Shown piece by piece: positions 1,000-48,168 of a stretch of DNA of 64,000 bases. A model generated the notes under the pieces. That model saw nothing but the letters and a program-made list of their open reading frames with translations, was not told the origin of the DNA and ran no database searches. Numbering within the stretch: position 1 is the stretch's first letter; each line of letters begins with the position of its first letter. The DNA comes from an uncultured Bacteroidota bacterium (GTDB lineage Bacteria; Bacteroidota; Bacteroidia; Chitinophagales; Chitinophagaceae): positions 240,092 to 304,091 of the forward strand of contig CAVSRV010000011.1 of NCBI GenBank assembly GCA_963730425.1, read 5' to 3'. Position numbers and translations under genes: made by a program.

Positions 1000-1123
1000 G
1001 ATATGGGTTATGAGATATGAGTTATGAGATATGAGGGAGATAAGTTTTTGGTTAAAGACAATTAATCGGTTCGTCTAAGATCCATAACCCATATCTCATA
1101 ACTCATATCTCATAACCTATAAC
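1000..1123. repeat. Inverted pair of tandem heptamer arrays (element A; GATATGA/GTTATGA units)
   Basis: Left units gatatgg gttatga gatatga gttatga gatatga (1000-1034); right units ccataac ccatatc tcataac tcatatc tcataac ctataac (1082-1123). Perfect 28-bp inverted repeat 1006-1033 / 1090-1117. Confidence 0.95.
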
Positions 1124-1190
1124 TCCGTCTCGCAAAGTTTTACCCTTTAAGCTTTCGGCATTCGGCCTTTCCACCTAAATTCGTATTTGC

Positions 1191-2468
1191 ATGATCAATA
1201 CCAATACCCTGATCTGGATCATTATAGCGTGGCTGATGATCATCTTTTTTGCGGGCATAGAGATCGCGTTTGCCAATGCGAACCGGTTAACTATTGAAAT
1301 AAGAAAGAAACAGGGACTTAAGCGTAGTATCCTGCTTTCGGGATTTCTGGATACCCCCAGCAAGTTTATCAGCGCACTATTGATTGGATTTAACCTTTTC
1401 CTGGTCATTTTCGGTTTGCTGGTAGGTGAGACGCTCTCGCCTTTATGGGAATTTATTATCAGAAAAACAGTTGTACCTCAGGCCTGGGTTGATATTTTTC
1501 GACTGATGTTTGAGACCCTTACGTCGACACTATTTATACTTTTTTTCGGGGAACTGATACCCAAAGCATTTTTTCGCGCAAAAAGCGATAGTCTGCTTGA
1601 TTTTTTCGCATCTGTGAGTAATTTCTTCTATAACTTATTTTACCCTGTATCTGTTTTTTTTACACGAATTTCAGAATGGATATTGAAGTATGTTTTCAAT
1701 GTGCGTATCGATGAGCGTAAAGATCTGTTTGCGAAGGCAGACCTTAGTAATTTTTTCCAACAGACCGGAGAAACGGATGAATCACAGCCTGAATTAAATA
1801 CGGATCTCTTTGAAGCAGCGCTCTCTTTGCCTAAAGTCAAAGTACGCGAGTGCCTGATACCCCGAAAAGAAATTGAAGGAGTTGATATCCGCATGAATAT
1901 TGATGATGCGCGAAAAAAATTCATGAACAGTAAGCTGAGTAAGCTGGTAGTTTATGATGGCAATATCGATCATGTAATGGGGTATATTCACCAGTTGGAC
2001 TTGTTCAAAGCGCCGGCATTCATCCGGGATATTCTATTGCCAATTCCCGCCGTGCCGGAAAGTATGAGTGCGATTGACCTGATCAGTAAGTTCAGCAGGG
2101 ACAGGAAAAGTATCGCCTGGGTTGTAGATGAATTTGGAGGAACCGCTGGTATCGTAACTATGGAGGATCTGCTCGAAGAGATTTTTGGTGAAATCCGTGA
2201 TGAGTACGATACAGAAGAATTTGAGGAAAAGAAATTATCGAACGAGGAATTTATTTTTGCGGGAAGACTCGAACTGGATTATCTCAATGAGAAATATGAA
2301 ATGGATTTTCCTGAGAATGAGTCAGAAACTCTATCCGGCTTCATTATTAACCGCCATGAAGCTATTCCCCGCTTAAAAGAGCATATCATAATTGACGATT
2401 ATGAATTTGAAATTCTCAGCGTCAGCGATACCCGTATCGAGATGGTAAAAATGAAACTCCTGAAATAA
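1191..2468 (+). CDS. Hemolysin/HlyC-CorC family protein (CNNM + CBS pair + CorC domain)
   Basis: FFAGIEIAF, LFFGELIPK, VVDEFGGTAGIVTMED and ETLSGFI motifs. Confidence 0.92.
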   Translation: MINTNTLIWIIIAWLMIIFFAGIEIAFANANRLTIEIRKKQGLKRSILLSGFLDTPSKFISALLIGFNLFLVIFGLLVGETLSPLWEFIIRKTVVPQAWVDIFRLMFETLTSTLFILFFGELIPKAFFRAKSDSLLDFFASVSNFFYNLFYPVSVFFTRISEWILKYVFNVRIDERKDLFAKADLSNFFQQTGETDESQPELNTDLFEAALSLPKVKVRECLIPRKEIEGVDIRMNIDDARKKFMNSKLSKLVVYDGNIDHVMGYIHQLDLFKAPAFIRDILLPIPAVPESMSAIDLISKFSRDRKSIAWVVDEFGGTAGIVTMEDLLEEIFGEIRDEYDTEEFEEKKLSNEEFIFAGRLELDYLNEKYEMDFPENESETLSGFIINRHEAIPRLKEHIIIDDYEFEILSVSDTRIEMVKMKLLK

Positions 2469-2577
2469 GCCTAAAGCCCAAAGCTTAAGGCCTGTTTAAT
2501 ATTTAATTCTAACTTTTTAAGGTAAGTGGAAATCTAAAAAGAAGTTTTAGGCTTTAGGCTTTAAGCTTTTAGCTTAG
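2469..2577. repeat. Imperfect inverted pair of heptamer arrays (element B; GCCTAAA / TTTAGGC units)
   Basis: gcctaaa gcccaaa gcttaag directly after the stop at 2468; gttttag gctttag gctttaa gctttta gcttagg at 2544-2578. Confidence 0.75.
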
Positions 2578-2597
2578 GTATTAAGTTCAATTCAATT

Positions 2598-2605
2598 TAC
2601 CTTTG
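2598..2605 (+). promoter_or_regulatory. Bacteroidota sigma70 -7 element upstream of tatC
   Basis: TACCTTTG matches TAnnTTTG, 32 nt before the ATG. Confidence 0.6.
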
Positions 2606-2637
2606 CGACTCCCGAACACACGGCAATACCGAGAATT

Positions 2638-3486
2638 ATGGCTTTAAACTTTTTTAAGAGGAACCCGGACCAGGCAGAAATGTCATTTATCGAACATCTT
2701 GAAGCTTTGCGCTGGCATATCGTCCGTTCCGTTCTTGCGATCGTGGTGCTGGCCATATTCGCTTTTATAAAGATTAATTGGATATTTGAAAATATTATCA
2801 TGGGACCACTTAAACAGGATTTCCTGTCTGTTGTGGGACTTTGTAACCTGAGCCATTTTTTGCACATTGGCGACACACTCTGTTTACCTATTACCAAAGT
2901 TCAACTGCAAACAACAGCATTTGGATCCCAGTTTATCTCGAGCATAACTATTGCGTGTGTCTGTGGTTTTATTGTTGCCTTTCCTTATATATTCTGGGAA
3001 TTCTGGCGGTTTGTAAAACCAGCCCTTTCTCCTAAGGAAATTAAAAGTACCCGTGGTTCGATATTTTTTGTAACCCTGTTCTTCATGTTGGGGATTGCTT
3101 TTGGATATTTTCTGCTCGCCCCATTTACATTTAGTTTCCTTAACAACTATAAACTAGACATAAGCGGGATGCTTATTACAAGGCCAACACTGGACGACTA
3201 TCTCGATAATCTGCTGGATATTCTGATTGGGTCAGGAATCGCATTCCAGTTGCCGCTCATTAGTTATGTGCTTACTCATATCGGACTGATTACTCCAAAT
3301 TTTCTTAGGGAATACAGGAAATATGCATATGTCGCCATATTATTTGTTGCCGCAATAATTACTCCATCACCCGATTGGATGAGCCAGACGATAGTAGCTA
3401 CACCGCTGATCATCCTTTACGAAATCAGTATCCGTATTTCCGTTCGTGTTGAAAAACAAATTAAGAAGAGGGATGAGGAATTTTAA
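2638..3486 (+). CDS. tatC: Twin-arginine translocase subunit TatC
   Basis: MSFIEHLEALRWHI, FWRFVKPAL, FQLP and AAIITPSPD motifs. Confidence 0.96.
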   Translation: MALNFFKRNPDQAEMSFIEHLEALRWHIVRSVLAIVVLAIFAFIKINWIFENIIMGPLKQDFLSVVGLCNLSHFLHIGDTLCLPITKVQLQTTAFGSQFISSITIACVCGFIVAFPYIFWEFWRFVKPALSPKEIKSTRGSIFFVTLFFMLGIAFGYFLLAPFTFSFLNNYKLDISGMLITRPTLDDYLDNLLDILIGSGIAFQLPLISYVLTHIGLITPNFLREYRKYAYVAILFVAAIITPSPDWMSQTIVATPLIILYEISIRISVRVEKQIKKRDEEF

Positions 3487-3511
3487 GCAATGCTTAAAAT
3501 TCTAGTATGGG

Positions 3512-3653
3512 GTAAGGCAAGTATGGGAGTATGGGAGTATGGGAGTATGAAAACTATATGATTCGATTTGCTGATCAATTATCAATAATAAAGACTTAAA
3601 GCGTTTGGTAATGATTTCATTCCCATACTCCCATACTCCCATACTTGCCTTAC
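3512..3653. repeat. Inverted pair of tandem 8-mer arrays (element C; GGGAGTAT units) between convergent tatC and adk
   Basis: Perfect 33-bp inverted repeat gtaaggcaagtatgggagtatgggagtatggga, 3512-3544 / 3621-3653, with a 76-bp spacer. The right arm includes the adk stop codon. Confidence 0.95.
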
Positions 3654-4225
3654 TGCCTGCTTTCTATCTCTTCCATAAGTTTACCGAAGATTTCATTGAC
3701 TGATCCTTCGCCGGGGATATAAACTACTTTGTTGTACTTTTTATAGTGATCTGCAACAGCTGCTGTCTTCCGTTCATACTCTTCAATTCTTGACCCGATA
3801 ACCGACTCATTTACATCATCCGTGCGCCCGGAAGTGAGTCCGCGGTTCAATAATCTTTTGATAAGCTCAGATTTTGAAACCTGAAGGGCCAACACAACAT
3901 TTATTGACATATTTTTTTCGGCGAGCAGGGCATCCAGGGCTTCAGCCTGTGCATTCGTGCGGGGAAATCCATCAAAAAGAAATCCATTTACTCCGGGATT
4001 GTCTTCAAGTGCCTTCCGAATCATACCGATTACTACAGCGTCAGGAACAAGCACACCCTGGTCCATCAGATTCTTGGCCTCCAAACCCAGTGCAGTCCCG
4101 TTCCTGATCTCATTTCGGAGAATATCGCCTGTGCTTAAGTGCTTGAACCCATAAAGGGCAATCAGTTTCTCTGATTGGGTTCCTTTCCCACTTCCAGGCG
4201 GACCAAAAAGAATCAGGTTAAACAT
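3650..4225 (-). CDS. adk: Adenylate kinase
   Basis: GPPGSGKGTQ, HLSTGDILR, LFDGFPRT and GRTDD (short LID). Start chosen at MFNLILFG. Confidence 0.96.
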   Translation of the reverse strand: MFNLILFGPPGSGKGTQSEKLIALYGFKHLSTGDILRNEIRNGTALGLEAKNLMDQGVLVPDAVVIGMIRKALEDNPGVNGFLFDGFPRTNAQAEALDALLAEKNMSINVVLALQVSKSELIKRLLNRGLTSGRTDDVNESVIGSRIEEYERKTAAVADHYKKYNKVVYIPGEGSVNEIFGKLMEEIESRQ

Positions 4226-4266
4226 TGCTACCAGGTTAATCATTGTGAACCACCCTTAGGTATTGA

Positions 4267-4274
4267 CAAATATA
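4267..4274 (-). promoter_or_regulatory. -7 promoter element for adk
   Basis: Reverse strand reads TATATTTG. Confidence 0.5.
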
Positions 4275-4412
4275 GTGTACGCTTCTTGTAATTCCTTTAA
4301 CAAATGGGCTAATTGACCTGCCAAAAACGGGGAGATAAATACAAACTTTGTAATAAAATGCAAATTCCCGGAGATGTCAAGGAAATGACAAACTGAACGA
4401 ACCGCAACTGCG

Positions 4413-4420
4413 TAGATTTG
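4413..4420 (+). promoter_or_regulatory. -7 promoter element for msrB
   Basis: TAGATTTG, 16 nt before the ATG. Confidence 0.55.
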
Positions 4421-4436
4421 TTATATAAACCAGGCA

Positions 4437-4982
4437 ATGAACAGATATATTAAAACATCCGGAATATTAATGCTTGCTTTTTTATTTCAGCAATGCTATT
4501 CCCAATCAAATAAAAGTAAAAACACCACTATGGATAAAAACCAGGTTCAGCCAGATTCGTCACTGGTAAACAGGACGGATGAAGAATGGCAGAAAATTCT
4601 TCCAGCAGACGTTTTTTATGTAGCCAGGCAGAAAGGCACCGAAAGACCCTTTACAAGCAAGTTTGAACATTCTAAGGATATAGGAATCTACTATTGTGCA
4701 GTTTGTGGTAATCCTTTATTCCGAAGTGATACCAAATTTGAAAGTGGCTGCGGTTGGCCCAGCTTTTATGAGCCGATAAGCAAGACCAGTATTATTTACC
4801 TGAAGGATAATTCTTTGGGCATGGAAAGAACGGAGGTGGAATGTGGAAGATGCAAATCTCATCTTGGACATGTATTTGATGATGGACCGCCACCAACCGG
4901 TCTTAGATATTGCATAAATGGTGTAGTGCTGGATTTCAAGAAAGCACAGGACGCTCAGAAAAAGTACGAAGCAAATAAATAA
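4437..4982 (+). CDS. msrB: Peptide-methionine (R)-S-oxide reductase MsrB with N-terminal signal peptide
   Basis: GTERPF, CxxC, KFESGCGWPSF, HLGHVFDDGP and RYCIN motifs; hydrophobic N-terminus. Confidence 0.95.
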   Translation: MNRYIKTSGILMLAFLFQQCYSQSNKSKNTTMDKNQVQPDSSLVNRTDEEWQKILPADVFYVARQKGTERPFTSKFEHSKDIGIYYCAVCGNPLFRSDTKFESGCGWPSFYEPISKTSIIYLKDNSLGMERTEVECGRCKSHLGHVFDDGPPPTGLRYCINGVVLDFKKAQDAQKKYEANK

Positions 4983-5003
4983 TAATCCAAAGAACTCCTT
5001 GAA

Positions 5004-5040
5004 AAAGATGCCCTTCGGAAATATTCTGAAGGGCATCTTT
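5004..5040 (+). terminator. Hairpin, probable intrinsic terminator of msrB
   Basis: 13-bp perfect stem aaagatgcccttc / gaagggcatcttt, about 20 nt after the stop. Confidence 0.75.
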
Positions 5041-5314
5041 CTTACCAGTAAGCCTCACGATTTAGGCACCGGTTCTTAAGCTTTAAAAATCCACGTTAAA
5101 CGTAATATCCTCATCTTTACCTACAACCGTTCTATCCTCCTGCCGGTACAGGTCCCAAATTTTTATTTAACAGGTGCTTGTATTATAATGGAGGATGGGC
5201 TATTTTAGTGACTCAATTCATTGAAAATTATAGGGCTAGCCGATTATCCGCAGGAAAATAATGATCAATTCTTAAAATCCTCTTCCAGAAAGTTTAACTA
5301 TACCCTTCAAGATT

Positions 5315-8565: not shown

Positions 8566-8708
8566 CTTAATTTATTTAATATATGAATGAATGAACGGGT
8601 AAAGATGCAATATAATTTATTTCTTTTAATGGGTGCTTCTTTGCAACCCCTTTTCCTGAATACGGAAAACAGGATTAGAGGTTGCTTTTATATTGTTTAG
8701 CCGGTGTA

Positions 8709-9320: not shown

Positions 9321-9338
9321 CAGCGCAAATTAATGCGT

Positions 9339-10295: not shown

Positions 10296-10404
10296 AATCC
10301 GCGCTCAACATAAATTTATAAAAAGTTTCAGGCCTTGGCTTTCAGATTTAGGCTTATGATTGCTATACGTTTAAATTGTCTTTCTGGTATGCGGAACTGT
10401 TAAT

Positions 10405-17698: not shown

Positions 17699-19639
17699 AT
17701 GAAAAAAGTAGTACTGATCTTTTGCCTGCTTCTGTTCTCCTGTTCTTTCTTCGGTCAAACGCTCGTTCACTATGGAAATCAATCCATCTCCCGCAAGGAG
17801 TTTCTTACTGCATTCCGTAAAAATAATATTCAGGTCAAAGCAACCGACAAATCGTACCATGATTACCTGGAACTTTATATCAGGTATAGATTGAAAGTGC
17901 AGGCGGCCCTGGATATGAAACTTGATACACTTCCCGGACAGGTCACAGAATTACAAAATTTCAAGAGCCAGATCGTTGATCAGTTTACCAACGACGATAA
18001 CAGTCTCAATCAAATGGCCAGAGAAGCCTTTACACGAAGTCAGCATGATCTCCGCATTTCATATATGTTCGTTGCTTCACCAAAAAATGCATCACCTGCG
18101 GATACGGCCAAAGCCTGGAAAAAAATTCAGGCAGCTTACCGTGATTTGAAAAATGGTAAGGACTTCGGTGAAACTGCGGCACAATATTCAGAAGACCCCT
18201 TCGCGAAAACTAATAAAGGTGATCTGGATTACATAACCGTTTTCGATCTGCCTTATGCCATGGAAACTGTTGCTTACCGCACGGCCAATGGTAAATTCAG
18301 TCCTGCTTTCCGAATTGGAAGTGGTTATGTGATCATAAAGAAAATGGCTGAGAGACCTGCACTTGGTCGCATTCACGCAGCACAAATCCTCGTAGCTTTC
18401 CCTTATCAGGCCAATGATGCGGCCAAAGCAGAAACACAAAAAAGAGCAGATTCTATATACCAGGCTATTAGCCATGGCGCTGATTTTGCAGAGCTAGCAA
18501 GGAAATTTAGCGGTGATAATTTGTCTTACCAGCTTGGAGGTTCATTGCCTGAATTCGGAATCGGTAAATATGAGAAAGGATTTGAGAACACAGCATTTGA
18601 TTTAAAAAAAGACGGAGACATTAGCGTGCCCTATGCTTCAGCATTCGGGTATCATATTATCAAAAGAGTCAAACGGATTCCTGTGCCTCCAGTGGCCAAC
18701 CAGAAATACCTGAATGAATTGAAAGAAAGGATAAAAACGGACCCACGCATAGCTGTTTCCAGAAGTCAGATGCTGCAGACCATTCTTAAAAAAACTCAGT
18801 TTAAGGAATTTATTCCGCCGGGTAATCGTCTGTGGGACTATACTGATAGTGTATTGCAAAATAAAAAGCCCGCTTCGAATTCAGGCATAAATGAAGCAAC
18901 TGTTCTTTTTCAGTTCCCGGATAAAAAATATTCTGTAGGTGACTGGATCGCATACAGAAAAAGTTTAAAATCATCTCCCAATTTAACCAACGGAAAAACT
19001 CCCGCAGAAATATTGGGAGTTTATCGTCAGGTCACCGCTTTTGATTATTATAAACAACATCTTGAAAAATATAATCCGGCTTATGCAGCCCAGGTTAATG
19101 AATTTCGTGAAGGAAATCTCCTGTTTGAAATCATGCAGCGAAAGATTTGGAACCGCTCTACCGCTGATTCGTCCGGCTTGAAAAAGTATTTTGAAAAACA
19201 TGAAGAATCATACTGGTGGAAGCCAGGGGCGGAAGCGATTATTTTTAATGTCCCTAATCAGGCTTCAGCAAATAAACTCGCTGAAGCTATTAAAAAAGAT
19301 GTAAATAATTGGAGAAAGGATGTTGATAGTTTGGGTGGACAGATCCAGGCAGATTCCGGAAGATTTGAACTTAGGCAGATTCCCGGTAATAAACCTGTTG
19401 GACCAGGCAGGCTCACCGAATTTATTTCCACTGCATCTGCAAACAACAAAAATAGTACAGTACAATTTGCATATATAATCCGTGAATATTCATCTTCATC
19501 GCCAAGGACATTCGGGGAAGCCAGAGGATTGGTTATTAACGATTATCAGAATGAATTGGAAAATAAATGGATCGAAGAGCTTAAAAAGAAGTATCCGGTT
19601 ACAATCAACGAGGCTGTTTTTAAATCCTTGCCGAAATAG
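17699..19639 (+). CDS. Parvulin-type peptidyl-prolyl isomerase (SurA/PpiD-like), multiple PPIC domains
   Basis: FGETAAQYSED..GDL, FAELARKFSGD and SAFGYHIIK; signal peptide. Confidence 0.9.
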   Translation: MKKVVLIFCLLLFSCSFFGQTLVHYGNQSISRKEFLTAFRKNNIQVKATDKSYHDYLELYIRYRLKVQAALDMKLDTLPGQVTELQNFKSQIVDQFTNDDNSLNQMAREAFTRSQHDLRISYMFVASPKNASPADTAKAWKKIQAAYRDLKNGKDFGETAAQYSEDPFAKTNKGDLDYITVFDLPYAMETVAYRTANGKFSPAFRIGSGYVIIKKMAERPALGRIHAAQILVAFPYQANDAAKAETQKRADSIYQAISHGADFAELARKFSGDNLSYQLGGSLPEFGIGKYEKGFENTAFDLKKDGDISVPYASAFGYHIIKRVKRIPVPPVANQKYLNELKERIKTDPRIAVSRSQMLQTILKKTQFKEFIPPGNRLWDYTDSVLQNKKPASNSGINEATVLFQFPDKKYSVGDWIAYRKSLKSSPNLTNGKTPAEILGVYRQVTAFDYYKQHLEKYNPAYAAQVNEFREGNLLFEIMQRKIWNRSTADSSGLKKYFEKHEESYWWKPGAEAIIFNVPNQASANKLAEAIKKDVNNWRKDVDSLGGQIQADSGRFELRQIPGNKPVGPGRLTEFISTASANNKNSTVQFAYIIREYSSSSPRTFGEARGLVINDYQNELENKWIEELKKKYPVTINEAVFKSLPK

Positions 19640-20552: not shown

Positions 20553-21626
20553 TTAAAGCTGTTCAAACAATGACCTCAGTTTTTCCCTTGTCATGATTTT
20601 TTCCCAATCAGCACCTAAAGCATTTTCCCATAAAGGTTTCATTCCCAGTGAAACATTGATCATAGTATCGAACTGCTCATCGGTGAGGCCCCTGGTGATG
20701 TGCTGAGGTATTTCAATTTTATTTTTTTTCACCATCAGTTTGAATTCACGTACTCCGTCAGGATAATATTCTTCAAGTTTATCAAAAACAATACAGTTTC
20801 CTATTCCGTGGCGGGTGCCCAGGAGATAACCTAAACCATAACTTACTGCATGAGCGATCCCAACCTGAGAGTAGGCGATACTCATTCCACCTGCATAAGA
20901 AGCCATCATAAGTTTGTCGTCGTGTTCGTCCCCCCATTCCCCTTCGCTAAGAAATACTTCCTGGCAGAGATTAAGCGCTTTCTCGCCATAGGATTTACTG
21001 AATTCATTTAAGAATGTGCCGGTAAGACTTTCGATACAATGTATATAACAGTCCATCCCCGTATAAAAACGCTGATTCACTGGAACATTCGCCGTGAGTT
21101 CCGGATCGAGTACAATTTGATCAAATGGAGTAAAATCTGAATTCATTCCCAATTTTCGGGTAGGGCCGGTCAATACAGTCGTTCTAGAAACTTCCGCGCC
21201 GGTACCACTTAAAGTAGGTATTCCTGCTTTATAAACACCTGGGTACTTCACAAGATCCCAGCCCTGATAATCTGCTGATGAACCTGGGTTATTCATCATA
21301 AGGGCCACTCCTTTAGCCAGGTCCATAACGGATCCACCACCAATTCCAATGATACCACTAATGCTGCCAAACTGTTGCTTCAACTTATTAGCCAGTTCAT
21401 CTACCTGTTTTGTTTTTGGTTCAAAATTTACATCCGCGAAAATAATTTTGTCTTCAGCATGAAGAGGTATGCGACTCACCAGCTGTTTATTCTCAAAATA
21501 ATGATCCACCAAAAAAATCATAGGTGAATTACCATTTCTTCTGGGTGCTAAAATTTCATCTAACTGGTTGAAACTTCCCCTTCCATAAACCACATAACTG
21601 ACCATTTTGAAATTTCTGAACTTCAT
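20553..21626 (-). CDS. kdnB: Iron-containing alcohol dehydrogenase family, KdnB-like (Kdo 8-oxidase)
   Basis: GRGSFNQL, YQGWDL, SGTGAEVSRT, KLGMNSD, FYTGMDCYIHCIESL, DDKLMMAS, AHAVSYGL and HHGIGNC-like motif match my recollection of Shewanella KdnB. kdsB is two genes upstream. Confidence 0.8.
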   Translation of the reverse strand: MKFRNFKMVSYVVYGRGSFNQLDEILAPRRNGNSPMIFLVDHYFENKQLVSRIPLHAEDKIIFADVNFEPKTKQVDELANKLKQQFGSISGIIGIGGGSVMDLAKGVALMMNNPGSSADYQGWDLVKYPGVYKAGIPTLSGTGAEVSRTTVLTGPTRKLGMNSDFTPFDQIVLDPELTANVPVNQRFYTGMDCYIHCIESLTGTFLNEFSKSYGEKALNLCQEVFLSEGEWGDEHDDKLMMASYAGGMSIAYSQVGIAHAVSYGLGYLLGTRHGIGNCIVFDKLEEYYPDGVREFKLMVKKNKIEIPQHITRGLTDEQFDTMINVSLGMKPLWENALGADWEKIMTREKLRSLFEQL

Positions 21627-21634
21627 ATTGTTAA

Positions 21635-21664
21635 GCTTAAAGCTTAAAGCGCAAGGCTAAAGGC
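21635..21664. repeat. Solo heptamer array (GCTTAAA-type)
   Basis: gcttaaa gcttaaa gcgcaag gctaaag gc, between the ROK stop and kdnB start; same unit family as element B. Confidence 0.6.
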
Positions 21665-21674
21665 TTTTTGTGAA

Positions 21675-32258: not shown

Positions 32259-32313
32259 CTATTTCTATCTTGGAGACGCAATTTACGACAATTCGTTGGC
32301 TGTCGGCGTTATT

Positions 32314-32775
32314 TGGTTTATGGTTGATGGTGAATGGTAGATGGTTTTTGATTTAAATAATTAATAAATCCCGTTATCAATTTAATATTTGATTCCAATA
32401 TCTTACTTAAACTATTGTAAGAACCCTGATCGATAATATTAGTCATAAGTGCTACACTCAATAATGTTTCCAATTCATAGGCCGAACCCCTGGAAATATA
32501 TAAAAATTGCAATGAGTCTTTTTTATGGTTTCTTCCAAGACCTTCCGCAAAGTTGCTTGGAATTGATACGGCAGCTCGTCTAGTTTGTGATATTAAACCA
32601 AATCTTTCTTCAGGAGGGTATGATTTCGTTAATAAATAGATTTGTTTCACAGTTTCCATAGAAAAAATCCAAACTTCTAATTTTTTATAACTTATCATAA
32701 TGATATCCTATTTTATAGTTTTTCTCATAAACCATAAACCATAAACCATCTGCCATACACCATATGCCATAAACC
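32314..32775. mobile_element. Candidate cassette: four-helix-bundle gene between inverted heptamer arrays (element G)
   Basis: Left arm tggttta tggttga tggtgaa tggtaga tggtttt (32314-32348); right arm tcataaa ccataaa ccataaa ccatctg ccataca ccatatg ccataaa (32725-32773). The right arm ends 2 nt from the stop codon of the upstream gene. Mobility is inferred, not shown. Confidence 0.5.
32318..32698 (-). CDS. Four helix bundle protein (23S rRNA-IVP / Avd-like family)
   Basis: YKKLEVW, FGLISQTRRAAVSIPSNFAEG, FLYISRGSAYELET. The last codons (PSTIHHQP) are read through the repeat arm. Confidence 0.93.
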   Translation of the reverse strand: MISYKKLEVWIFSMETVKQIYLLTKSYPPEERFGLISQTRRAAVSIPSNFAEGLGRNHKKDSLQFLYISRGSAYELETLLSVALMTNIIDQGSYNSLSKILESNIKLITGFINYLNQKPSTIHHQP

Positions 32776-33741
32776 TCAATCACAATCCCTCCCCAAAATC
32801 TTCCCATTCATCCATTCGAGATTTAATCTCTGATATTCCTTTTGTTCAGAAATTGAAAGGCTGTCGTTTGCAAGATGATCAAGTGCGGGTTGCCCGGCAT
32901 TCACCCATGCTGTATACCAGCAGGATGCCACAGCAAAAATTGACTGGCGCATGCGGCGCTCAATCATATGATTTAATTTTCTTTCATAGAGAGTTGCATA
33001 AGAGGTAGAATATTGTTTCAGGATTTTTCCCTTGCGCTCCTCAAATGCATATTTCTGATCGGGTCTGAAAAGACTGCTGATTTCTTTTTCACAACGTAGC
33101 ACTGTGTCTGCAGCAGCCGCACTCTCCAGGATCCTATCCCAGATAAATGAAGAAAGATCCGGGATATAAACTGCCTTACCAATAAAAAAATTCCAATCTG
33201 TTTCCGCCAATAATTCAGGAATCCTGGATTCCCAGAATGCGTGTATGCCTTCCTGATGTGTCATCTGGCCATTGTGATTGGAACATACATGCAGCGGAAC
33301 ATGCGCATCGGCCACATAGTGACCCAATTCAGCGGCATTTTTGAGGATGGCCTGTTTGTCTTTTTCACGGAAAGCCTTTGTGAGCCGACTCATCATAATC
33401 TGGATCCACCAAGGAACGATTCCGTAATGCTGTAAACTGTCGGCCGAATATTTCTGAATGGCCGATTTATAATCTCTGGGAATAGCAGGGAAGGGGTAAA
33501 CTCCATAATGGTCAATATCCAGAAAATGATGTGCACCCTCGCTGGCTACCATATACCTTCTTTTATCCGGATCCACCGCGTGTTCGGAAAGGAAACTTAT
33601 AGAAGGCTTGAAAAGAATCATCATCTGCGGCGGCAGAAGAAAAACAGCATAGTAATTTATTTTTTCATGCATGTAAAAACCCCAGCAGTAGGAACGGTGC
33701 GATAAAAGTATCAGGATGATGATGTAGCAGAGCTCCTTCAT
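32776..33741 (-). CDS. S1/P1 nuclease / zinc-dependent phospholipase C family protein
   Basis: Mature N-terminus WGFYMH, AVDPDKRR, LGHYVADAHVPLH and IHAFWES motifs. Confidence 0.88.
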   Translation of the reverse strand: MKELCYIIILILLSHRSYCWGFYMHEKINYYAVFLLPPQMMILFKPSISFLSEHAVDPDKRRYMVASEGAHHFLDIDHYGVYPFPAIPRDYKSAIQKYSADSLQHYGIVPWWIQIMMSRLTKAFREKDKQAILKNAAELGHYVADAHVPLHVCSNHNGQMTHQEGIHAFWESRIPELLAETDWNFFIGKAVYIPDLSSFIWDRILESAAAADTVLRCEKEISSLFRPDQKYAFEERKGKILKQYSTSYATLYERKLNHMIERRMRQSIFAVASCWYTAWVNAGQPALDHLANDSLSISEQKEYQRLNLEWMNGKILGRDCD

Positions 33742-33762
33742 AAAAGAGAGTTATCTACTAAT

Positions 33763-33894
33763 CGTTGGCTGTTGGTCGTTGGCGGTTGGCTGACTTCAAT
33801 AAAACATCCAAAATAAATTTATGTTTCTAATATACCAATACCACTTATAGTGTTTTAATATTTACGGCCAACTGCCAACGGCCAACCGCCAACG
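33763..33894. repeat. Inverted pair of heptamer arrays (element H; NGTTGGC / GCCAACN)
   Basis: cgttggc tgttggt cgttggc ggttggc (33763-33790) and gccaact gccaacg gccaacc gccaacg (33867-33894); 76-bp AT-rich spacer. Confidence 0.9.
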
Positions 33895-33899
33895 AATAC

Positions 33900-34520
33900 T
33901 CATTCATCAATATTCGTGACCCCGCCGGAGATGGCGAATTTCATTGCCTCTGTCGAAGAGATATCGGTGATCAGACGGACTCTTTCTTTTTTTACAAAAA
34001 ACAAATGGCCCGCAAAAGCATAAGATTGTGGTACATATACTGAAATATATTCCTGCAAACCGAATTCTGCCAGCTCTTCATGAGTTATGAATCCAATCCG
34101 CCAGATATCCGTTGATTCAATACTAACCAGAACTGCCCGGTCGAATTTGCGCTTGTTGCCGGCAAAAGCTTCAAAAAAATCTTTGATAGTACTATAAATT
34201 ATTTTAATGCCTGGTGTCTTCTCCAGTATATTATCGAAAAGTTCTACCAGCTTGCTTACTATAAAGGATGAAGAAACATAACCTACTATCAGAACAATGA
34301 CGATAACAAGGATAAATCCAATTCCGGGGATATGCCTGGGGTTCCCGCTTTCGTCCAGGGCCAGCTTTGGAAAAAGGCTGTGAATGAAATTAGGCAGTAT
34401 ACTGTCCACCCAGTTAAATAAGGAAAGTACTGTCCATAATGTGATCGTGATAGGTGCCAGGATGATCAGCCCCTGCAAAAAATACCTGAACAGTTTGCTG
34501 AATAGGGTCTTCAATTTCAT
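33900..34520 (-). CDS. DUF502 domain membrane protein
   Basis: YFLQGL..LAP, TPGIKIIYSTIKD, GFIT, VYVPQSY and EAMKF..SGG motifs. Confidence 0.9.
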   Translation of the reverse strand: MKLKTLFSKLFRYFLQGLIILAPITITLWTVLSLFNWVDSILPNFIHSLFPKLALDESGNPRHIPGIGFILVIVIVLIVGYVSSSFIVSKLVELFDNILEKTPGIKIIYSTIKDFFEAFAGNKRKFDRAVLVSIESTDIWRIGFITHEELAEFGLQEYISVYVPQSYAFAGHLFFVKKERVRLITDISSTEAMKFAISGGVTNIDE

Positions 34521-37766: not shown

Positions 37767-37803
37767 ATCAGCGAGTTATCTATAACCATTCCAATTCATT
37801 TTT

Positions 37804-41379: not shown

Positions 41380-41544
41380 ACAGGACTAAGTTCATTATAC
41401 TGCCGGTTGATTCCCGAGAATCAAAGTGCGCTTTATGTTAGGTATATAAGTTATTTATAAGCCTGTTGTTATAGACTTTTGTTACCGGGAAAATAACTGC
41501 TGAGCTGTTAAGAAATAAAAACCTGTTTTTTACGTTGCTCCCGT

Positions 41545-42706: not shown

Positions 42707-42781
42707 AGTTTAATTTGTTTAGGACTTGCAATTTACTAAAAAGAAAATGTATTGTAAAGAGCCCGGAATGGGTTTCTACAC

Positions 42782-43636: not shown

Positions 43637-43642
43637 TAAAAA

Positions 43643-44860
43643 TTATTTCTTTCTTGGCGGCCCCTGAGGAGGTCTGTTGTCAGGCCTGTTATTTGGTCTG
43701 TTATTAGGCTTGTTATCGCTTCTGCGTTGTTGCGGAGGTCCTGGCCGGTGATTCTGCTTTTTTTTGCGGTCAGCACTATCCAGCGTTTTCAAACTGAATT
43801 GTCCCGTAAGATCAACATTCACCAGTTCTTCCTTCGGTTTACCATTCACTTCAACAGCACCCAGATCGTCCGGGATTATATTCTGCTGATTGAGTTTTTT
43901 TATCTGTTTAACTCTGTCAATCAAAAGAGGGTATTGTTTGCTGCTGTCAGGCAATACATACCACATCAGGTTTTTAAAAATGTCTTTTTTAATCAGCAGG
44001 GCTGTTCCCTTGGCTACCTGCAGTGTATCTGCATTATCAGGAAATTGCTGCAGCGCATCCAGGTAAGTATCAAGTTCGTAATTCAGGCAGCATTTTAAAC
44101 GGCCGCACTGACCGCTCAGTTTACTCTGATTGATGGAAAGATTCTGATAGCGGGCAGCAGTAGTGTTAACTGATTTGAAATCTGTGAGCCATGTAGAGCA
44201 ACAAAGTTCACGTCCGCAGCTGCCAATACCTCCAACTTTTCCTGCTTCCTGACGTGCGCCGATCTGGCGCATTTCAACTTTTACGCGGAATTCAGAAGCG
44301 AATATTTTAATGAGCTCCCGGAAATCAACACGGTCGTCTGCTATATAATAGAATGTAGCTTTACGGCCGTCTGCCTGAATTTCCACCTGCGACACTTTCA
44401 TGTCAAGCTTAAGTTGACGCGAAATGGCGCGCGAACGAATCACGGCTTCCTTTTCGCGGGCTTTGTTTTGTTTTAATAGATCCAGGTCACGGTCTGAAGA
44501 GCGGCGAAGTATCTTTTTCATGTCTGGATGAAATTCATCCACACTTTTCTTCTTCATTTGTATCCTGACCAGCTCGCCCGTTAAGCTTACCGTACCAACA
44601 TCAAAACCACTAACACCCTCCACGCTCACTATTTCTCCTTTTTCGAAGATCTGTGTTGTTGTATTACGATAAAAATCCTTACGGCTACCCTGACTAAAAC
44701 TTATCTCCATCACCCTGCATTCCGAAGCAGGGTCGTGAATCGGTAGATTTGAGAGCCAGTCATACACATTCATTCTGTTGCAACTTCCTGTACCACAGCT
44801 TCCATGACTCTGGCATCCACCTGGCTTGCCGCCGGCAGTGCCACAATTAGAACATCCCAT
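43643..44860 (-). CDS. ricT: PSP1/RicT (YaaT) family Fe-S protein
   Basis: Cys-rich N-terminus, RVDFREL, EMRQIGARQEA, CGRELCC and SGQCGRLKCCLNYE; downstream of holB. Confidence 0.88.
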   Translation of the reverse strand: MGCSNCGTAGGKPGGCQSHGSCGTGSCNRMNVYDWLSNLPIHDPASECRVMEISFSQGSRKDFYRNTTTQIFEKGEIVSVEGVSGFDVGTVSLTGELVRIQMKKKSVDEFHPDMKKILRRSSDRDLDLLKQNKAREKEAVIRSRAISRQLKLDMKVSQVEIQADGRKATFYYIADDRVDFRELIKIFASEFRVKVEMRQIGARQEAGKVGGIGSCGRELCCSTWLTDFKSVNTTAARYQNLSINQSKLSGQCGRLKCCLNYELDTYLDALQQFPDNADTLQVAKGTALLIKKDIFKNLMWYVLPDSSKQYPLLIDRVKQIKKLNQQNIIPDDLGAVEVNGKPKEELVNVDLTGQFSLKTLDSADRKKKQNHRPGPPQQRRSDNKPNNRPNNRPDNRPPQGPPRKK

Positions 44861-44905
44861 ATTTATTTATAAGTTAACAAGCAAGTTGACAAATATACTA
44901 AGTTC

Positions 44906-46066
44906 CTAGGTCACTACAGCTTCTTCCCGAGTAGCCAGGATATGATAAAGCCGGATCGTCAGCGCATGAAACAATATTTTAGCATTTGCGTTGCGTTCAA
45001 TATAATAAATCGATTTATTGAGTTCTTCCACGATGGCCTGTTGGATGGACAGATCTGCGATTTTATTCAGTCTCAGGGCAAAATCTTTCTCTGAATCAGG
45101 CAGATCTTTAATGGCTTCCTCAGACATGCGAAGTCTTATTGCCTGTTCAAGCAGATGACCGAAATACTGTAAAAACTGTTTCTGTCTTTCGCGACCTGAT
45201 TTGCTGATTTCTTCAACCCATTTTACCTGCGCAATCGGACCTGTTTTCAAAACTGCGTTCAACCATTCCCGTAATAATCCCTGCCAGTCATCCTGACCGT
45301 GTTGAAGCTGTCTCAGGGATTCACGGTAATTCTGTTCACTGACAGCAGCAAGTTGTCTCGCCTGCTCAGGAGCTACCCCGGCGCGTTCTACCAGCGCGTC
45401 CTGAATTTCCTGAATGGATGGCTTCGGCAGTCGTATGATCTGAACCCTTGAAAGTATGGTTGGAAGAATCAGTGTTTCATTTTCGGTAACCAGTATGAAC
45501 AGGGTATCTGGTGGCGGTTCTTCAATAAGCTTCAATAATTTATTTCCTTCATTGCCAAGATATTCCGGCATCCACATGATCAGGATTTTATATCCGCTTT
45601 CGAAACTCTTCAGGCTAAGTTTGCGGTTGATCTCATTACATTCATGAGCTGAAATATTTCCCTGTTTGTTATCTGCTTCAATAAACTGCAGCCAGTCAAA
45701 AATAGTTCCGTAAGGAAACTGGGAAATGAATTCACGCCACTCAGATATAAAATCTGCACTCACCGGTTTATCGCCAGGTTTGCGCGAAATCACCGGATAT
45801 ACATAATGGATATCGGGATGCATCATCTTAGCTGCTTTGACACAGGAGGGGCATACATTACAGCTTTCAACCGGAAAATTAGATTTTGAAATTTCTTCTG
45901 AAACCCGGTCGCACATGATGAATTGCGAAAAAGCCAATGCCAATGGCAACCCACCCGCACCTTCAGGCGCATTGATGAGCAACGCATGGCTCAACCTGTT
46001 GTGCTCAACGAGGTTGCGAAGCTTTACCTTGATTTCCTGCTGACCAATAACCTGACTAAATAACAT
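44906..46066 (-). CDS. holB: DNA polymerase III delta' subunit
   Basis: RLSHALL, CxxC..C, HPDIH, NKLLKLIEEPP and LPTILSR motifs. Confidence 0.9.
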   Translation of the reverse strand: MLFSQVIGQQEIKVKLRNLVEHNRLSHALLINAPEGAGGLPLALAFSQFIMCDRVSEEISKSNFPVESCNVCPSCVKAAKMMHPDIHYVYPVISRKPGDKPVSADFISEWREFISQFPYGTIFDWLQFIEADNKQGNISAHECNEINRKLSLKSFESGYKILIMWMPEYLGNEGNKLLKLIEEPPPDTLFILVTENETLILPTILSRVQIIRLPKPSIQEIQDALVERAGVAPEQARQLAAVSEQNYRESLRQLQHGQDDWQGLLREWLNAVLKTGPIAQVKWVEEISKSGRERQKQFLQYFGHLLEQAIRLRMSEEAIKDLPDSEKDFALRLNKIADLSIQQAIVEELNKSIYYIERNANAKILFHALTIRLYHILATREEAVVT

Positions 46067-46080
46067 CCGGCTGGTCAGTA

Positions 46081-46602
46081 TTAATTAAGATGAGACGTAA
46101 TCTGATCACTCATCGGAGTAACCTTACTATCAAAAACAGCAATAAGTTTTCCATTTTCATCAATCAGAAATTTTGTAAAATTCCATTTGATGACGGGAGC
46201 TGGTGTACCAAGCTTTATTGCTTCTTCAGTAAGGTATTTAAACAATGGGGATGTATTCTCTCCGACTACATCAGATTTCGCAGCCAATGGGAATGTTACG
46301 CCATAATTTTTCTGACAAAATTCTTTTATTTCTGAATTTGTACCAGGTTCCTGTGCACCGAAATCATTGGCGGGAAAACCGACGATAGTAAGTTTGTCTT
46401 TGTATTTTTCGTACAGTTTTTCCAGATCTGCATATTGCGGTGTAAATCCACATTTTGAAGCTGTGTTTACGATCAATAGTTTTTTCCCTTTGTAGGCAGA
46501 CAAATCAATCGTTCCACCATCAAGCGACGGCACTTTGAAGTCGTACACATTAACACTGCTATTTATCATAAATAAAATTGGAATGAGCAATAGTCTTAAC
46601 AT
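46081..46602 (-). CDS. Glutathione peroxidase family protein
   Basis: IVNTASKCGFTPQY, GFPANDF and KWNFTKFLID motifs. Confidence 0.95.
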   Translation of the reverse strand: MLRLLLIPILFMINSSVNVYDFKVPSLDGGTIDLSAYKGKKLLIVNTASKCGFTPQYADLEKLYEKYKDKLTIVGFPANDFGAQEPGTNSEIKEFCQKNYGVTFPLAAKSDVVGENTSPLFKYLTEEAIKLGTPAPVIKWNFTKFLIDENGKLIAVFDSKVTPMSDQITSHLN

Positions 46603-46665
46603 AAAATATATTTTTATTTTAGAATCAATGTTCCACTATCAAAGCTAGCAAGAATTGTGCGGGAA

Positions 46666-48051
46666 TCACTGCCGTTCATAACAACCTAGGTCGGGAAGAT
46701 TTACCGGCCTAGGATTGCCATCAAGGTCAATAAGAATACCCAGGATAGAGCCATGATCCACTCCAGGCGAACTGGCCTGCAGGTGAAAATCGAATGTACT
46801 TGCGGGAAACCCCGTAGCAATAAATTGAGGATCTGTATTTAGCCATAAAGAACTGCTGTCAATATTTGCAGGATAATTTTGCTGCTTCAGAATTACGTGA
46901 TCAAATAAAACATTGAAAATAGTATTTCCCTGTTTTGAAATCAATGCTTCATCTGATTGACTTTCACCACCCCAGAAAATACAATCCAGAAAACTGGCAT
47001 TCAGATCTCCCGTCAGGGTGCCATCTGAACTGGCATTGGAAATGCTGAGAACCGGCTGTTGATGTGAAAGAAGGTTAGTGGAATACGATGCTACTGTACA
47101 ATACTCAAACTGATAAACGCCACCCTGGTTAATAACAATATTCTGTCCGCAATTGCTAACTAGACAATTGATAGCTGTTATACTGGATTCAATTCCCAGC
47201 AGGCCCTCTGCAAGAGAATTGTTAACTATACACTGATTTAATGAAAGCTTTGGATTCATGTCAGTGCTGGGTCCTTCTGCGACGAGGCTATGATACCCAT
47301 TCTGAAAAACAGTATAATTAAGCACATTGTCCCTGCTAGCATCCCTGAAATATATTCCTGGCCACGAACCCGGATAATTGACATATGGCTGGTCCAGCCT
47401 GTCACCTGTAAAATATACCCGTTGATTTTCAGCGGTATCTCCCAACACTTTGAGGCTGCCGTCTATATAGATAGGTGCGTCTGCATGCATATATATATGA
47501 GTACCGGGCTGAATAGTAAGGGTTGCATTGCTATCGATAGTAAGACCACCGTATATCACATAGGGCAAATCATTTGGCCAGTTGGTATTTGACTGAATTA
47601 CAAAGTTCTTTAGAAAATGGGCATTCTGACCCCAGGCGTTCAGTTGTATATATTGCTCGACACCATTGTAACTTAATCGTATGCTGTCCTGCAGCAAAAA
47701 GGGGGTCGGTTTCACTCCCGATGGAATCAGCACGGTAACAAAAATGTAAAGGCTGTCATTCGCCTGTATATTGAGATTGGAAGCATTGGGTCCGGGAGTT
47801 CCGTCTATATTAATAACAAACGGAGAACCTGTTCCGCCAGCCAGGCTGATGGAAGAAATCCCAACACTCCGGTTATTATTGTTAATCAGCTTAACCTGTT
47901 GAGTAATAGAGCCTGTTGTGGTAAAAACGGTGTCAAAACTCAATGTATCTGCAGATAAAGTAAGAAGAGCACTTCCGTTCATATTCGCCTGTTTTTGGCA
48001 GGAAACAAGCACAAAAGCAGTAAAGATGCAGGAAAACAGGTTTTTATACAT
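46666..48051 (-). CDS. Lipoprotein with Ig-like and right-handed beta-helix domains (hypothetical)
   Basis: Lipobox LVSC; DTLSFDTVF, FTGDRLD and DLDGNPR..PDLGCYE (choice-of-anchor-like tail). Confidence 0.75.
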   Translation of the reverse strand: MYKNLFSCIFTAFVLVSCQKQANMNGSALLTLSADTLSFDTVFTTTGSITQQVKLINNNNRSVGISSISLAGGTGSPFVINIDGTPGPNASNLNIQANDSLYIFVTVLIPSGVKPTPFLLQDSIRLSYNGVEQYIQLNAWGQNAHFLKNFVIQSNTNWPNDLPYVIYGGLTIDSNATLTIQPGTHIYMHADAPIYIDGSLKVLGDTAENQRVYFTGDRLDQPYVNYPGSWPGIYFRDASRDNVLNYTVFQNGYHSLVAEGPSTDMNPKLSLNQCIVNNSLAEGLLGIESSITAINCLVSNCGQNIVINQGGVYQFEYCTVASYSTNLLSHQQPVLSISNASSDGTLTGDLNASFLDCIFWGGESQSDEALISKQGNTIFNVLFDHVILKQQNYPANIDSSSLWLNTDPQFIATGFPASTFDFHLQASSPGVDHGSILGILIDLDGNPRPVNLPDLGCYERQ

Positions 48052-48082
48052 CCCGACAAAAATACGTTTTAGGACATTTAAT

Positions 48083-48168
48083 TGGTATAAGGTATATGGT
48101 GCATGGTCTATGGATTGGTTTTATTATTTAAATGAGCTACCATATTCTATTTACCATATACCATAGAC
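48083..48168. repeat. Degenerate inverted pair of heptamer arrays (element I; TGGTATA / TACCATA)
   Basis: tggtata aggtata tggtgca tggtcta tgg (48083-48113) and taccata ttctatt taccata taccata gac (48138-48168), abutting the comF stop. Confidence 0.75.

Follow-up and report, generated by a model that had tools for sequence, protein, structure and literature searches.

Rehm et al. (2015, PLoS One, PMC4692102) described G-rich heptamer repeats in Xanthomonas (GGGAATC) and Nostoc (GGGGAYT). In both organisms, the G-rich strand lies in sense orientation within 50 bp of a stop codon or overlapping the end of an ORF, and in antisense orientation upstream of ORFs; 70–75 convergent inverted pairs occur per genome, whereas the heptamers are under-represented between divergent genes, and most are transcribed (PMC4692102). 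Transcripts of Xanthomonas start or stop at heptamers more often than at control repeats; each genome has one G4-capable unit, and a G-quadruplex role was proposed (PMC4692102). Related arrays are the cyanobacterial STRR and long simple sequence repeats (Mazel et al. 1990; Mrazek et al. 2007; cited in PMC4679880 and PMC4692102). The excess of heptamers in many bacterial genomes has been noted since at least 2007, and STRR since 1990, with no accepted explanation; G-quadruplexes were put forward by the only detailed study. The flush heptamer layout is already known for Xanthomonas and Nostoc and still unexplained.

Two further systems resemble the elements studied here. REP/BIME (REPIN) sequences have a unit of 20–40 bp with a GTAG/CGTC head and are associated with RAYT transposases. 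In ORF-bearing IVS of 23S rRNA, a PF05635 (S23p) ORF lies in a stem-loop that is excised by RNase III.

The window, a stretch of 64,000 nt, belongs to the genome (4.47 Mb, 91.5% complete) of a Puia-like soil bacterium of the Chitinophagaceae. The original prediction held that six inverted repeat pairs in it adjoin stop codons, and inspection of the coordinates pair by pair confirmed all six junctions. The features are as follows.

999..1033, plus strand: 5' arm of pair A, GATATGA/GTTATGA family, flush with the gmk stop
1090..1124, plus strand: 3' arm of pair A, CATAACY/CATATCT
1125..1175, plus strand: decayed 3' arm (aagctttcggcattcggcctttc) left by an older hairpin of the GCCTAAA family, situated between pair A and the CNNM leader
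2469..2491, plus strand: 5' arm of pair B, GCCTAAA family, immediately 3' of the CNNM stop TAA (2466–2468)
2542..2575, plus strand: 3' arm of pair B, TTTAGGC, followed by a conserved TAccTTTG -7 box
3512..3552, plus strand: 5' arm of pair C, octamer GTATGGGA family, with CAAG end motif
3615..3653, plus strand: 3' arm of pair C, containing the adk stop (3650–3652, minus strand)
21633..21666, plus strand: unpaired GCTTAAA-family array, occupying most of a 48-nt spacer
32293..32312, plus strand: remnant CGTTGGC-family array, adjoining the aminotransferase leader
32315..32355, plus strand: 5' arm of pair G, TGGTNNN
32318..32698, minus strand: PF05635 gene (23S rRNA IVS protein/four-helix bundle) in the loop of pair G, E = 3e-33
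32735..32775, plus strand: 3' arm of pair G, CCATNNN, flush with the nuclease-gene stop (32776–32778)
33759..33790, plus strand: 5' arm of pair H, CGTTGGC family
33867..33898, plus strand: 3' arm of pair H, aligned stem to 33898
48085..48113, plus strand: 5' arm of pair I, TGGTATA-type, degenerate
48140..48168, plus strand: 3' arm of pair I, flush with the comF-like stop (48169–48171)

The gmk stop TAA occupies 997–999 and the arm of pair A begins at 999/1000; in pair H, the period-7 array proper ends at 33894, 5 nt from the DUF502 stop (33900–33902). The canonical strand of the unpaired array at 21633..21666 runs inward from a gene start at 21626. Predicted RNA folds were strong for pairs A (-58 kcal/mol, z = -10.3), C (about -76 kcal/mol [-75.8], z = -11.0) and H (-54 kcal/mol, z = -6.8), and weak for pairs B and I (z about -2.5). 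Pair G was the sole pair in the window with a PF05635 gene in its loop, the other five being gene-less.

Polar tandem arrays of this kind occur throughout the genome, and the six pairs are its local examples. Across the whole 4.47 Mb, we found at least 148 hairpins with period-7/8 array arms and about 330 unpaired arrays, and the non-overlapping inverted pairs numbered 161. Period 7 was in excess (769 TRF rows vs 89 for period 6 and 248 for period 9), as were multiples of 7. Pairs with loops longer than 600 nt were excluded as arms of neighbouring same-family hairpins that flank ordinary housekeeping genes; the median loop of the hairpins was 59 nt. With genes taken from a crude ORF call (minimum 90 aa, longest start), the hairpin base lay a median of 4 nt from the gene on the stop side (n = 195; 56% within ±10 nt) and 33 nt on the start side (n = 101; Mann–Whitney p = 1e-7 between the sides), whereas random placement gave a median of about 160 nt with 5% within 10 nt. 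There were 67 tandem and 17 divergent sites, and 64 convergent sites against 25 expected (200 simulations, maximum 35). Even among sites with at least 100 nt of free spacer, the stop was no more than 15 nt away at 8 of 17 tandem ones (1.1 expected), and one stop was directly abutted at 14 of 18 convergent ones. Convergent spacers with a hairpin retained 16 nt of residual sequence, compared with a typical 82–85 nt. Hence the genome-wide scan against stop distance proposed in the original prediction revealed proximity to stops far beyond chance, and an artefact of short spacers was rejected by the random-placement and free-spacer tests.

Unit sequences had been thought to differ from site to site; instead, about six families recur across loci and species. 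The C-poor strand of each array runs from the neighbouring gene into the spacer, and two facing arrays make a hairpin. Pair B, previously read as an exception to this polarity, obeys it when judged by family orientation. Adjacent array pairs faced inward in 152 of 172 cases and outward in 2, and 42 of the inward pairs combined different families that are incapable of base-pairing. The sense-canonical orientation prevailed 103:18 among unpaired arrays no more than 15 nt from a stop, and arrays adjoining start codons ran inward 24:10. The octamer family has a common CAAG/GAAAG end motif, and only the AAAAAGT family has A/T-tract arms. Repeated G3 tracts are lacking in the units GATATGA, GTTATGG, GCCTAAA, AAAAAGT, CGTTGAC and GTGTGAGA, and GGG occurs only in GTATGGGA. 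Because the same geometry is seen here with units incapable of forming quadruplexes, it is independent of quadruplex chemistry.

The arrays share with those of Xanthomonas and Nostoc the intergenic period-7 excess, the sense/antisense polarity and the convergent inverted pairs, but differ in comprising about six families, most of them G4-incapable (GATATGA, GCCTAAA, AAAAAGT); the octamers, the all-frame stop content, the tRNA adjacency and the PF05635 link were not reported in PMC4692102. STRR and long simple sequence repeats, as far as their descriptions in the citing papers go, likewise show an intergenic period-7 tandem excess and several unit families per genome. Those descriptions are of direct arrays and do not include strict inward polarity, hairpin pairing or flush 3'-end contact. 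The TAACTGA repeats of Beggiatoaceae lie just upstream of start codons, unlike the present arrays.

The original prediction had also suggested looking for presence and absence in sister genomes, and the elements were indeed polymorphic among sister species. Occupancy was read from printed spacers, as an automated six-genome matrix lacked the sensitivity that degenerate arrays require. Sites B, C, H and I were occupied in all syntenic close relatives compared, with changes of unit family, and site B was absent from a more distant clade. Between species sharing about 90% amino-acid identity, site A and several others varied in presence. One and the same orthologous site carried different families in different species. 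The decayed GCCTAAA-family hairpin at 1125..1175 has an intact form in relative L017, and intact CGTTGGC-family arms stand at the site of the 32293..32312 remnant in relatives G001 and G011; such old 3' arms persist only where they adjoin the leader of the next gene. Array copy number varied widely between species, and the two arms co-varied, for example GTATGGGA/TCCCATAC versus GTGTGAGA/TCTCACAC. Two findings had been named as counting against the original prediction, namely arrays no closer to stops than short spacers imply and pairs that are fixed, ancient terminators; neither applies, because placement is non-random and the elements are polymorphic among sister species. Its interpretation is partly supported, as regards non-random placement beyond a short-spacer effect, whereas neither of its mechanisms, targeting to stop sites or selected 3'-UTR hairpins, was supported as stated.

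Inverted arms enclose each of the six PF05635 genes of the genome, and five of the six arm sets are period-7/8 arrays. Most of 30 PF05635 genes sampled in seven relatives are likewise enclosed. The protein clade tracks the arm family: the tree needs 10 changes, whereas shuffled labels need 19.3, and none of 200 shuffles went as low. Our literature search found no published description of PF05635 genes framed by heptamer arrays. The long stem around a PF05635 gene (pair G and five other genome copies) and the gene-less hairpins of the pair families in the rRNA spacer recall the 23S rRNA IVS. The present elements differ in that they stand between genes and not in rRNA helices, and are mostly gene-less.

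A whole element of about 210 nt, arms and loop included, was found 96% identical at two unrelated loci, each copy flush with a TAG stop and oriented alike with respect to its gene. The copy could be due not to movement but to gene conversion between hairpins that already existed, and no target-site duplication was seen at it. Other BLAST matches of loops were segmental duplications or leftover array units. In the 91.5%-complete genome there was no match to PF01797 (Y1/RAYT transposase), although controls responded, and no PF00078 (reverse transcriptase); REP/RAYT and retroelement (DGR-like) mechanisms were rejected accordingly. As in REP/BIME systems, hundreds of extragenic palindromes follow gene 3' ends or lie between convergent genes, are rare between divergent genes, form family sets per genome and show partly conserved site occupancy. 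Unlike them, the elements lack a Y1/RAYT gene and have tandem-array arms, and the associated gene encodes a small four-helix-bundle protein. The fixed inside/outside polarity (152 inward vs 2 outward) resembles that of terminal inverted repeats in MITEs, with which the comparison comprises the lack of a duplication at the two-locus copy and a transposase search covering Y1 and reverse transcriptase.

The inward-running strand holds TAA, TGA and TAG, and the 7/8-nt period shifts these triplets through all three frames. A stop codon lay inside the aligned arm in about one third of junctions. At about 60 junctions the arm overlapped the stop codon or entered the CDS, and in many of these the stop was visibly a triplet of the array unit (gcc TAA agcc TAA agcc; ggt TGA cggt TGA cgg). 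Arrays also stood 0–12 nt 3' of 4 of 40 tRNAs. Flush contact with tRNA 3' ends includes two in the rRNA spacer; the spacer between tRNA-Ile and tRNA-Ala in the rRNA operon is filled by one hairpin that leaves 3 and 4 nt. This flush geometry at tRNA 3' ends indicates that translation stops are not what is sensed. The proposed targeting to translation stop sites fails, as worded, on the flush contact with tRNA CCA ends and the tRNA–tRNA spacer, and on a stop codon usage at junctions close to that of the genome.

We tentatively favour, with a probability of roughly 45%, the explanation that the arrays are repeat elements, dispersed and self-renewing, that are akin to PF05635 gene cassettes, stay in place at the 3' boundaries of genes and may also act as putative transcript-end hairpins. 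They would have the same build as the arms enclosing PF05635 four-helix-bundle genes, and would renew themselves through slippage and through copying, both from arm to arm and from locus to locus. Their persistence at the 3' end of genes, whether for protein or for tRNA, would follow from that part of a compact spacer holding no promoter or leader. Arrays could adjoin or replace a stop because the stop triplets of the inward strand rotate through three frames. The distance of 0–5 nt would then reflect element structure and loss of unprotected spacer, with no stop-codon-sensing mechanism. Presumably, transcription includes them as 3' trailers, and they may act as putative non-canonical transcript-end or processing hairpins. 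In favour of this explanation are the period-7 excess, the recurrence of a few families across loci and species, the near-absolute polarity, the all-frame stops of entering arms, the tRNA contacts, the survival of old 3' arms next to leaders, the association of PF05635 clade with arm family, and the whole-element copy. Against this explanation, contact with the stop despite at least 100 nt of apparently free spacer does not obviously follow from tolerance and spacer loss; such spacers would have to be functional or hide unannotated genes. Loops, with their median of 59 nt, escape trimming. The absence of a mobilising enzyme (Y1/RAYT, reverse transcriptase) and of target-site duplication weighs against it as well. 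The occupancy of sites B, C, H and I with a change of family is as compatible with a site-specific requirement as with a hot spot.

In a rival explanation, which we regard as possible but doubtful, selection would keep the elements just 3' of the gene as RNA hairpins whose stems end, process (RNase III, rRNA-IVS-like) or stabilise the transcript, the repeat sequence being interchangeable. It accords with the family swaps at those four sites, the replacement of the usual spacer and the stop contact where free spacer exists elsewhere. This genome has few canonical terminators (in 32% of array-free convergent spacers vs 12% of shuffled ones), the tRNA-flanking hairpins of the rRNA spacer resemble processing stems, an exact TAnnTTTG -7 box follows the 3' arm at 8 of 43 tandem sites (3.1 expected), and Xanthomonas transcripts start or stop at the repeats above control level (PMC4692102). 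However, the 42 non-complementary pairs and about 120 unpaired arrays at stops keep the same position and orientation, and the claim of selected 3'-UTR hairpins is therefore unsupported in the form first given. Stems showed no sense-strand excess of G:U over A:C (57 vs 62 in tandem contexts), a weak test because most mismatches are unit variants. A T-run of at least 4 within 12 nt 3' of the hairpin followed just 9%, and a rule-based scan rejected canonical Rho-independent terminators for want of a U-tract. At site C, relatives L004–L006 and L017 carry a canonical bidirectional terminator in the loop, which would leave one arm per mRNA. The presence or absence of site A and others at about 90% amino-acid identity also argues against this rival.

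An unlikely but far-reaching reading is that the arrays are ordered, transposon-end-like binding sites for PF05635 proteins, with a separate 7/8-nt unit recognised by each clade. Proteins and arrays would then make up a hairpin element system that is guided by protein, has no transposase, installs itself at the 3' boundary of any gene and brings a frame-independent stop module, and the hundreds of gene-less hairpins and unpaired arrays would be non-autonomous copies and relics. If true, the long-noted abundance of heptamers in bacterial genomes and the role of the 23S-IVS protein family would both be accounted for.

Very improbable, in our judgement, is a translation-coupled element, in which a stem no more than about 15 nt from the stop makes the terminating ribosome stall, or the array acts as an all-frame fail-safe stop. 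For REP sequences of E. coli that lie no more than 15 nt from a stop, such stalling was reportedly described by Liang, Rudd and Deutscher in 2015. In the present genome, the 56% of stop-side junctions within 10 nt and the stop-rich sense orientation of unpaired arrays are in line with such coupling, and all-frame stops were enriched in entering arms (45% vs 11% of random intergenic DNA and 21% of shuffled arms). The other 55% of entering arms nevertheless leave the three frames unclosed, and C-poor composition alone lifts the stop content (shuffled arms 21% vs 4%). Arrays adjoining start codons also run inward, and the untranslated tRNA ends and tRNA–tRNA spacer are contacted as closely. Local birth, by slippage from a stop-containing heptamer with the inverted partner made by fold-back copying, would suit the in-phase stops, the wide copy-number differences and the co-varying arms, but it is scarcely credible and already largely refuted by family structure, as about six families account for hundreds of loci, turn up again in other species and alternate at a single site. 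Against it also stand the complete element, loop included, that two unrelated loci share and the end motif common to the octamers.

To the published layout, our analysis adds testable rules: near-absolute inward polarity even of arrays that do not pair, stops in three frames, flushness at tRNAs, and a unit family that co-varies with PF05635 clade. They restrict the range of mechanisms and point to a very common protein family of unknown function, PF05635.

All six junctions between the window's inverted array pairs (hairpins of two facing arms, each arm a tandem array of period 7 or 8) and gene stops were as originally predicted when the sequence was re-read, and the identities of the flanking genes were confirmed by Pfam.

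Pair A: starts directly 3' of the gmk TAA
Pair B: starts directly 3' of the CNNM TAA
Pair C: adk stop lies inside the right arm
Pair G: last base directly precedes the stop of a nuclease gene
Pair H: array ends 5 nt ahead of the DUF502 stop
Pair I: last base directly precedes the stop of a comF-like gene

The predicted folds were very strong for pairs A, C and H (z -6.8 to -11) and weak for pairs B and I (z about -2.5). The source genome (4.47 Mb, 40% GC, 12 contigs) contains the window at C11:240092-304091. It showed a large excess of period-7 repeats (769 TRF rows, to which periods 14 and 21 add 261 and 95) and 336 rows of period 8. Arrays with an inverted partner formed 188 pairs, 161 of them non-overlapping, with a median arm of 33 nt and a median loop of 59 nt. 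Pairs with loops longer than 600 nt were dropped because they represented arms of neighbouring hairpins around housekeeping genes, leaving 148 hairpins. Measured on a crude gene set (4,035 ORFs, each 90 aa or longer; 87% coding), the median distance was 4 nt on the stop side (n=195, IQR -2 to 16) and 33 nt on the start side (n=101; Mann-Whitney p = 1e-7), whereas random placement in any spacer that fits gave a median of about 160 nt with 5% within 10 nt; arrays were thus much closer to stops than random placement across the genome. In tandem spacers, 52 of 65 hairpins lay closer to the stop than to the other end, and 64 hairpins lay between convergent genes (25 expected). Where at least 100 nt of spacer was free, 8 of 17 tandem sites still had the stop no more than 15 nt away (1.1 expected), and one stop was abutted at 14 of 18 convergent sites; short spacers therefore do not account for the bias.

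The polarity of the arrays was near-absolute. Of 172 adjacent array pairs, 152 had the C-poor strand running inward, away from the flanking gene, and two had the opposite arrangement; defined in this way, the polarity of pair B, at first regarded as an exception, conforms. Pairs of unlike families, unable to base-pair, made up 42 of the 152 inward pairs, and the same-family share of adjacent pairs was 72%, compared with about 24% under random matching. About 330 arrays in the whole genome had no detectable partner. Among those with a stop-side neighbour, 108 of 244 were at -25 to +10 nt from the stop; for arrays no more than 15 nt from a stop, the C-poor strand was the sense strand in 103 cases vs 18, and next to starts it ran inward at 24:10. 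Because unpaired arrays follow the same rules, position and orientation are properties of the arrays and not of pairing.

A search with the CNNM protein retrieved relatives that were Puia-like Chitinophagaceae MAGs, and we compared eighty loci around the CNNM gene and, for five relatives, the 64 kb syntenic with the window. All syntenic close relatives compared had sites B, C, H and I filled, although the unit family may change, as follows (G numbers are relatives' genomes).

Site I: TGGT-type in the window, G011 and G006
Site I: CGTTGGC in G001
Site I: CGATGAC in G002
Site I: GCNTAAA in G005
Site H: CGTTGGC in five genomes
Site H: TGGT-type in G006

In a more distant clade (loci L010-L015 and L023), site B was empty and site C held AAAAAGT or CGTTGAC hairpins. 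Site A was present, decayed or absent among species at about 85-95% protein identity, and some sites empty in the window were filled in relatives: the spacer at window 62054/62066, only 11 nt long here, measured 161 nt in G011 and 252 nt in G006, and the convergent spacer at 19639/19681 was in G006 wholly one direct array of 11 units. Every array present at these sites in relatives begins at the stop. Unit copy number varied widely across species, the two arms co-varied (GTATGGGA/TCCCATAC, GTGTGAGA/TCTCACAC, GTACAGGA), and sites A and G retained relic 3' arms of older families between the present hairpin and the next gene's leader. Neither of the two explanations that the original prediction set against itself, closeness through short spacers and fixed, non-polymorphic terminators, held. 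The end of ORF 43643-44860 carries a period-12/24 repeat (GGTCTGTTATCAGGCCTGTTATTT; window 43670-43716), and the orthologous region differs in length in G005 and G006. The G002 orthologue of the comF-like gene (window 48169-48873) is probably truncated or decaying, since its alignment is limited to residues 1-131 and its spacer is 396 nt.

The conserved occupancy in relatives and the stop bias where the spacer seems free leave room for a functional role of the hairpins at transcript ends, a reading that we consider rather unlikely although it is compatible with dispersed elements. Judged by sequence, the array hairpins are not canonical terminators: a T-run followed the stem in 9%, and 11% of loops had a terminator-like structure. 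Canonical terminators were uncommon overall, occurring in 32% of array-free convergent spacers vs 12% after shuffling. The AAAAAGT family resembles a GC stem enclosed by a lengthened A/T tract, and some relatives have a canonical bidirectional terminator flanked by octamer arms, so that each mRNA would carry one arm only. No sense-strand excess of G:U over A:C was found in the stems (57 vs 62). The Bacteroidetes -7 box TAnnTTTG peaked 10-40 nt upstream of starts genome-wide, implying short leaders; it followed the 3' arm at 8 of 43 tandem sites vs 3.1 expected, which bears out in part the promoter proposed after the second arm. A small stem-loop at window 3484-3502 (TAAGCAATGCTTA, then AAAATTC) includes the tatC stop codon and was kept in relatives with compensatory changes (TAGGCTATGCCTA, TAGGCGAAGCCTA, TAAGCGTAGCTTA); after tRNA-Tyr, an octamer array has a similar stem, CCGCAATGCGG, ahead of it (contig C3:1305742).

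The inward strand of the units contains stop triplets (GTTA-TGA, GCC-TAA-A, GTG-TGA-GA, GTA-TAG-GA, CGT-TGA-C, AAAG-TAA), which a period of 7 or 8 rotates through the reading frames. Arms entered from the gene closed all three frames in 45% of cases (random intergenic DNA, 11%; shuffled arms, 21%) and at least two in 81%, and 31% of leaving arms had no stop. At about 60 of 195 junctions the arm overlapped the stop or entered the CDS, and in many overlaps the gene's stop was visibly a triplet of the array unit; stop codon usage at array junctions was close to that of the genome. A translation-coupled role of the arrays or hairpins is nevertheless improbable, because arrays also adjoin tRNAs. 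In the rRNA operon spacer (C3:1368187-1368520, minus strand), one GCNTAAC-family hairpin fills the interval between tRNA-Ile and tRNA-Ala, from 3 nt past the former to 4 nt before the latter. Another of this family begins at the base that follows the CCA of tRNA-Ala, with the 23S rRNA gene further downstream, so that heptamer hairpins are part of the pre-rRNA transcript. Genome-wide, 4 of 40 tRNAs had an array no more than 15 nt from their 3' end, a frequency similar to that for protein genes. The array geometry is not tied to translation. Inverted heptamer arrays were also read through as peptide repeats in long ORFs (C7:21114-21903 and C1:363229-364683), HPSTVIRQPSTINHQPSTIDHQPSTINQ in a homocysteine-methyltransferase-like ORF and ALSVEPSALGPEKALSLERSALSVERSAL in another; either the arrays were inserted in frame or the ORF calls are fused.

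The units had been described as differing from site to site; we found instead a few families common to many loci. Single-linkage clustering chained the units into few superfamilies, and motif-based classification gave six families.

NNTATGR/TGGTNNN
octamers GTATGGGA, GTATAAGA, GTGTGAGA, GTGTGGTA
GCCTAAA/GCTTAAC
CGTTGRC/CGATGAC
AAAAAGT
AATTGTY

This structure makes local birth of arrays from a stop-containing heptamer highly improbable. One whole element, arms and loop, was 96% identical over about 210 nt at two unrelated loci.

C10:72746-72944 and C3:312497-312743: nested element with GTTATGG outer arms, TGGTNNN inner arms and a common loop

Both copies were flush with a TAG stop in identical orientation to the gene and followed similar gene ends (aagcgttt TAG and aagcgaattt TAG); their flanks were unrelated, and no target duplication was found at them. 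The two copies show copying between loci, either because the element moved or because one existing hairpin converted another. A genome search found no RAYT or reverse transcriptase genes.

Pair G encloses a PF05635 gene (23S rRNA IVS protein/four-helix-bundle family; 32318-32698, minus strand; Pfam). All six PF05635 genes in the genome lay between inverted arms, five with period-7/8 arrays and the sixth with a non-periodic 64-nt inverted repeat; one cassette with AAAAGTA arms (C3:1364423-1364895) comes immediately after the terminator of a 5S rRNA gene. Of 30 PF05635 genes sampled from seven relatives, most were likewise framed, and arm family tracked PF05635 clade (10 label changes on the tree vs 19.3 shuffled; 0 of 200 shuffles as low). 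Among G006, G001, G011 and G002, the best match to the site G protein (77%) came from G006, a more distant species with the arm family in common; the match to the nearest relative G011 was lower (60%), which suggests exchange of the cassette between lineages. A literature search found no published link between heptamer-type arrays and PF05635 genes.

Dispersed elements with defined ends fit better than local origin or upkeep for pairing alone, because of the fixed inside/outside polarity, the few shared families, family replacement at one site, relic arms, the cargo gene and the element present at two loci. In compact spacers, only the part on the 3' side of a gene would be unconstrained. The inward array strand could replace the stop codon whatever the frame, which would make deletions or insertions reaching the stop harmless. 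If arrays renew themselves and unprotected spacer is lost, flush contact with gene ends would follow. We tentatively give this combined reading a probability of about 45%.

The array geometry is already in print: Rehm et al. 2015 (PMC4692102) described GGGAATC repeats in Xanthomonas and GGGGAYT repeats in Nostoc, with the G-rich strand sense close to or overlapping stops and antisense upstream of ORFs; each genome had 70-75 convergent inverted pairs, and most repeats were transcribed. Their G-quadruplex interpretation, however, cannot apply to most families here. The TAACTGA repeats of MacGregor 2015 (PMC4679880) lie just upstream of start codons, a placement different from that of these gene-end arrays. 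The geometry is thus real, strong and partly described before; what is new is the lineage and the added rules.
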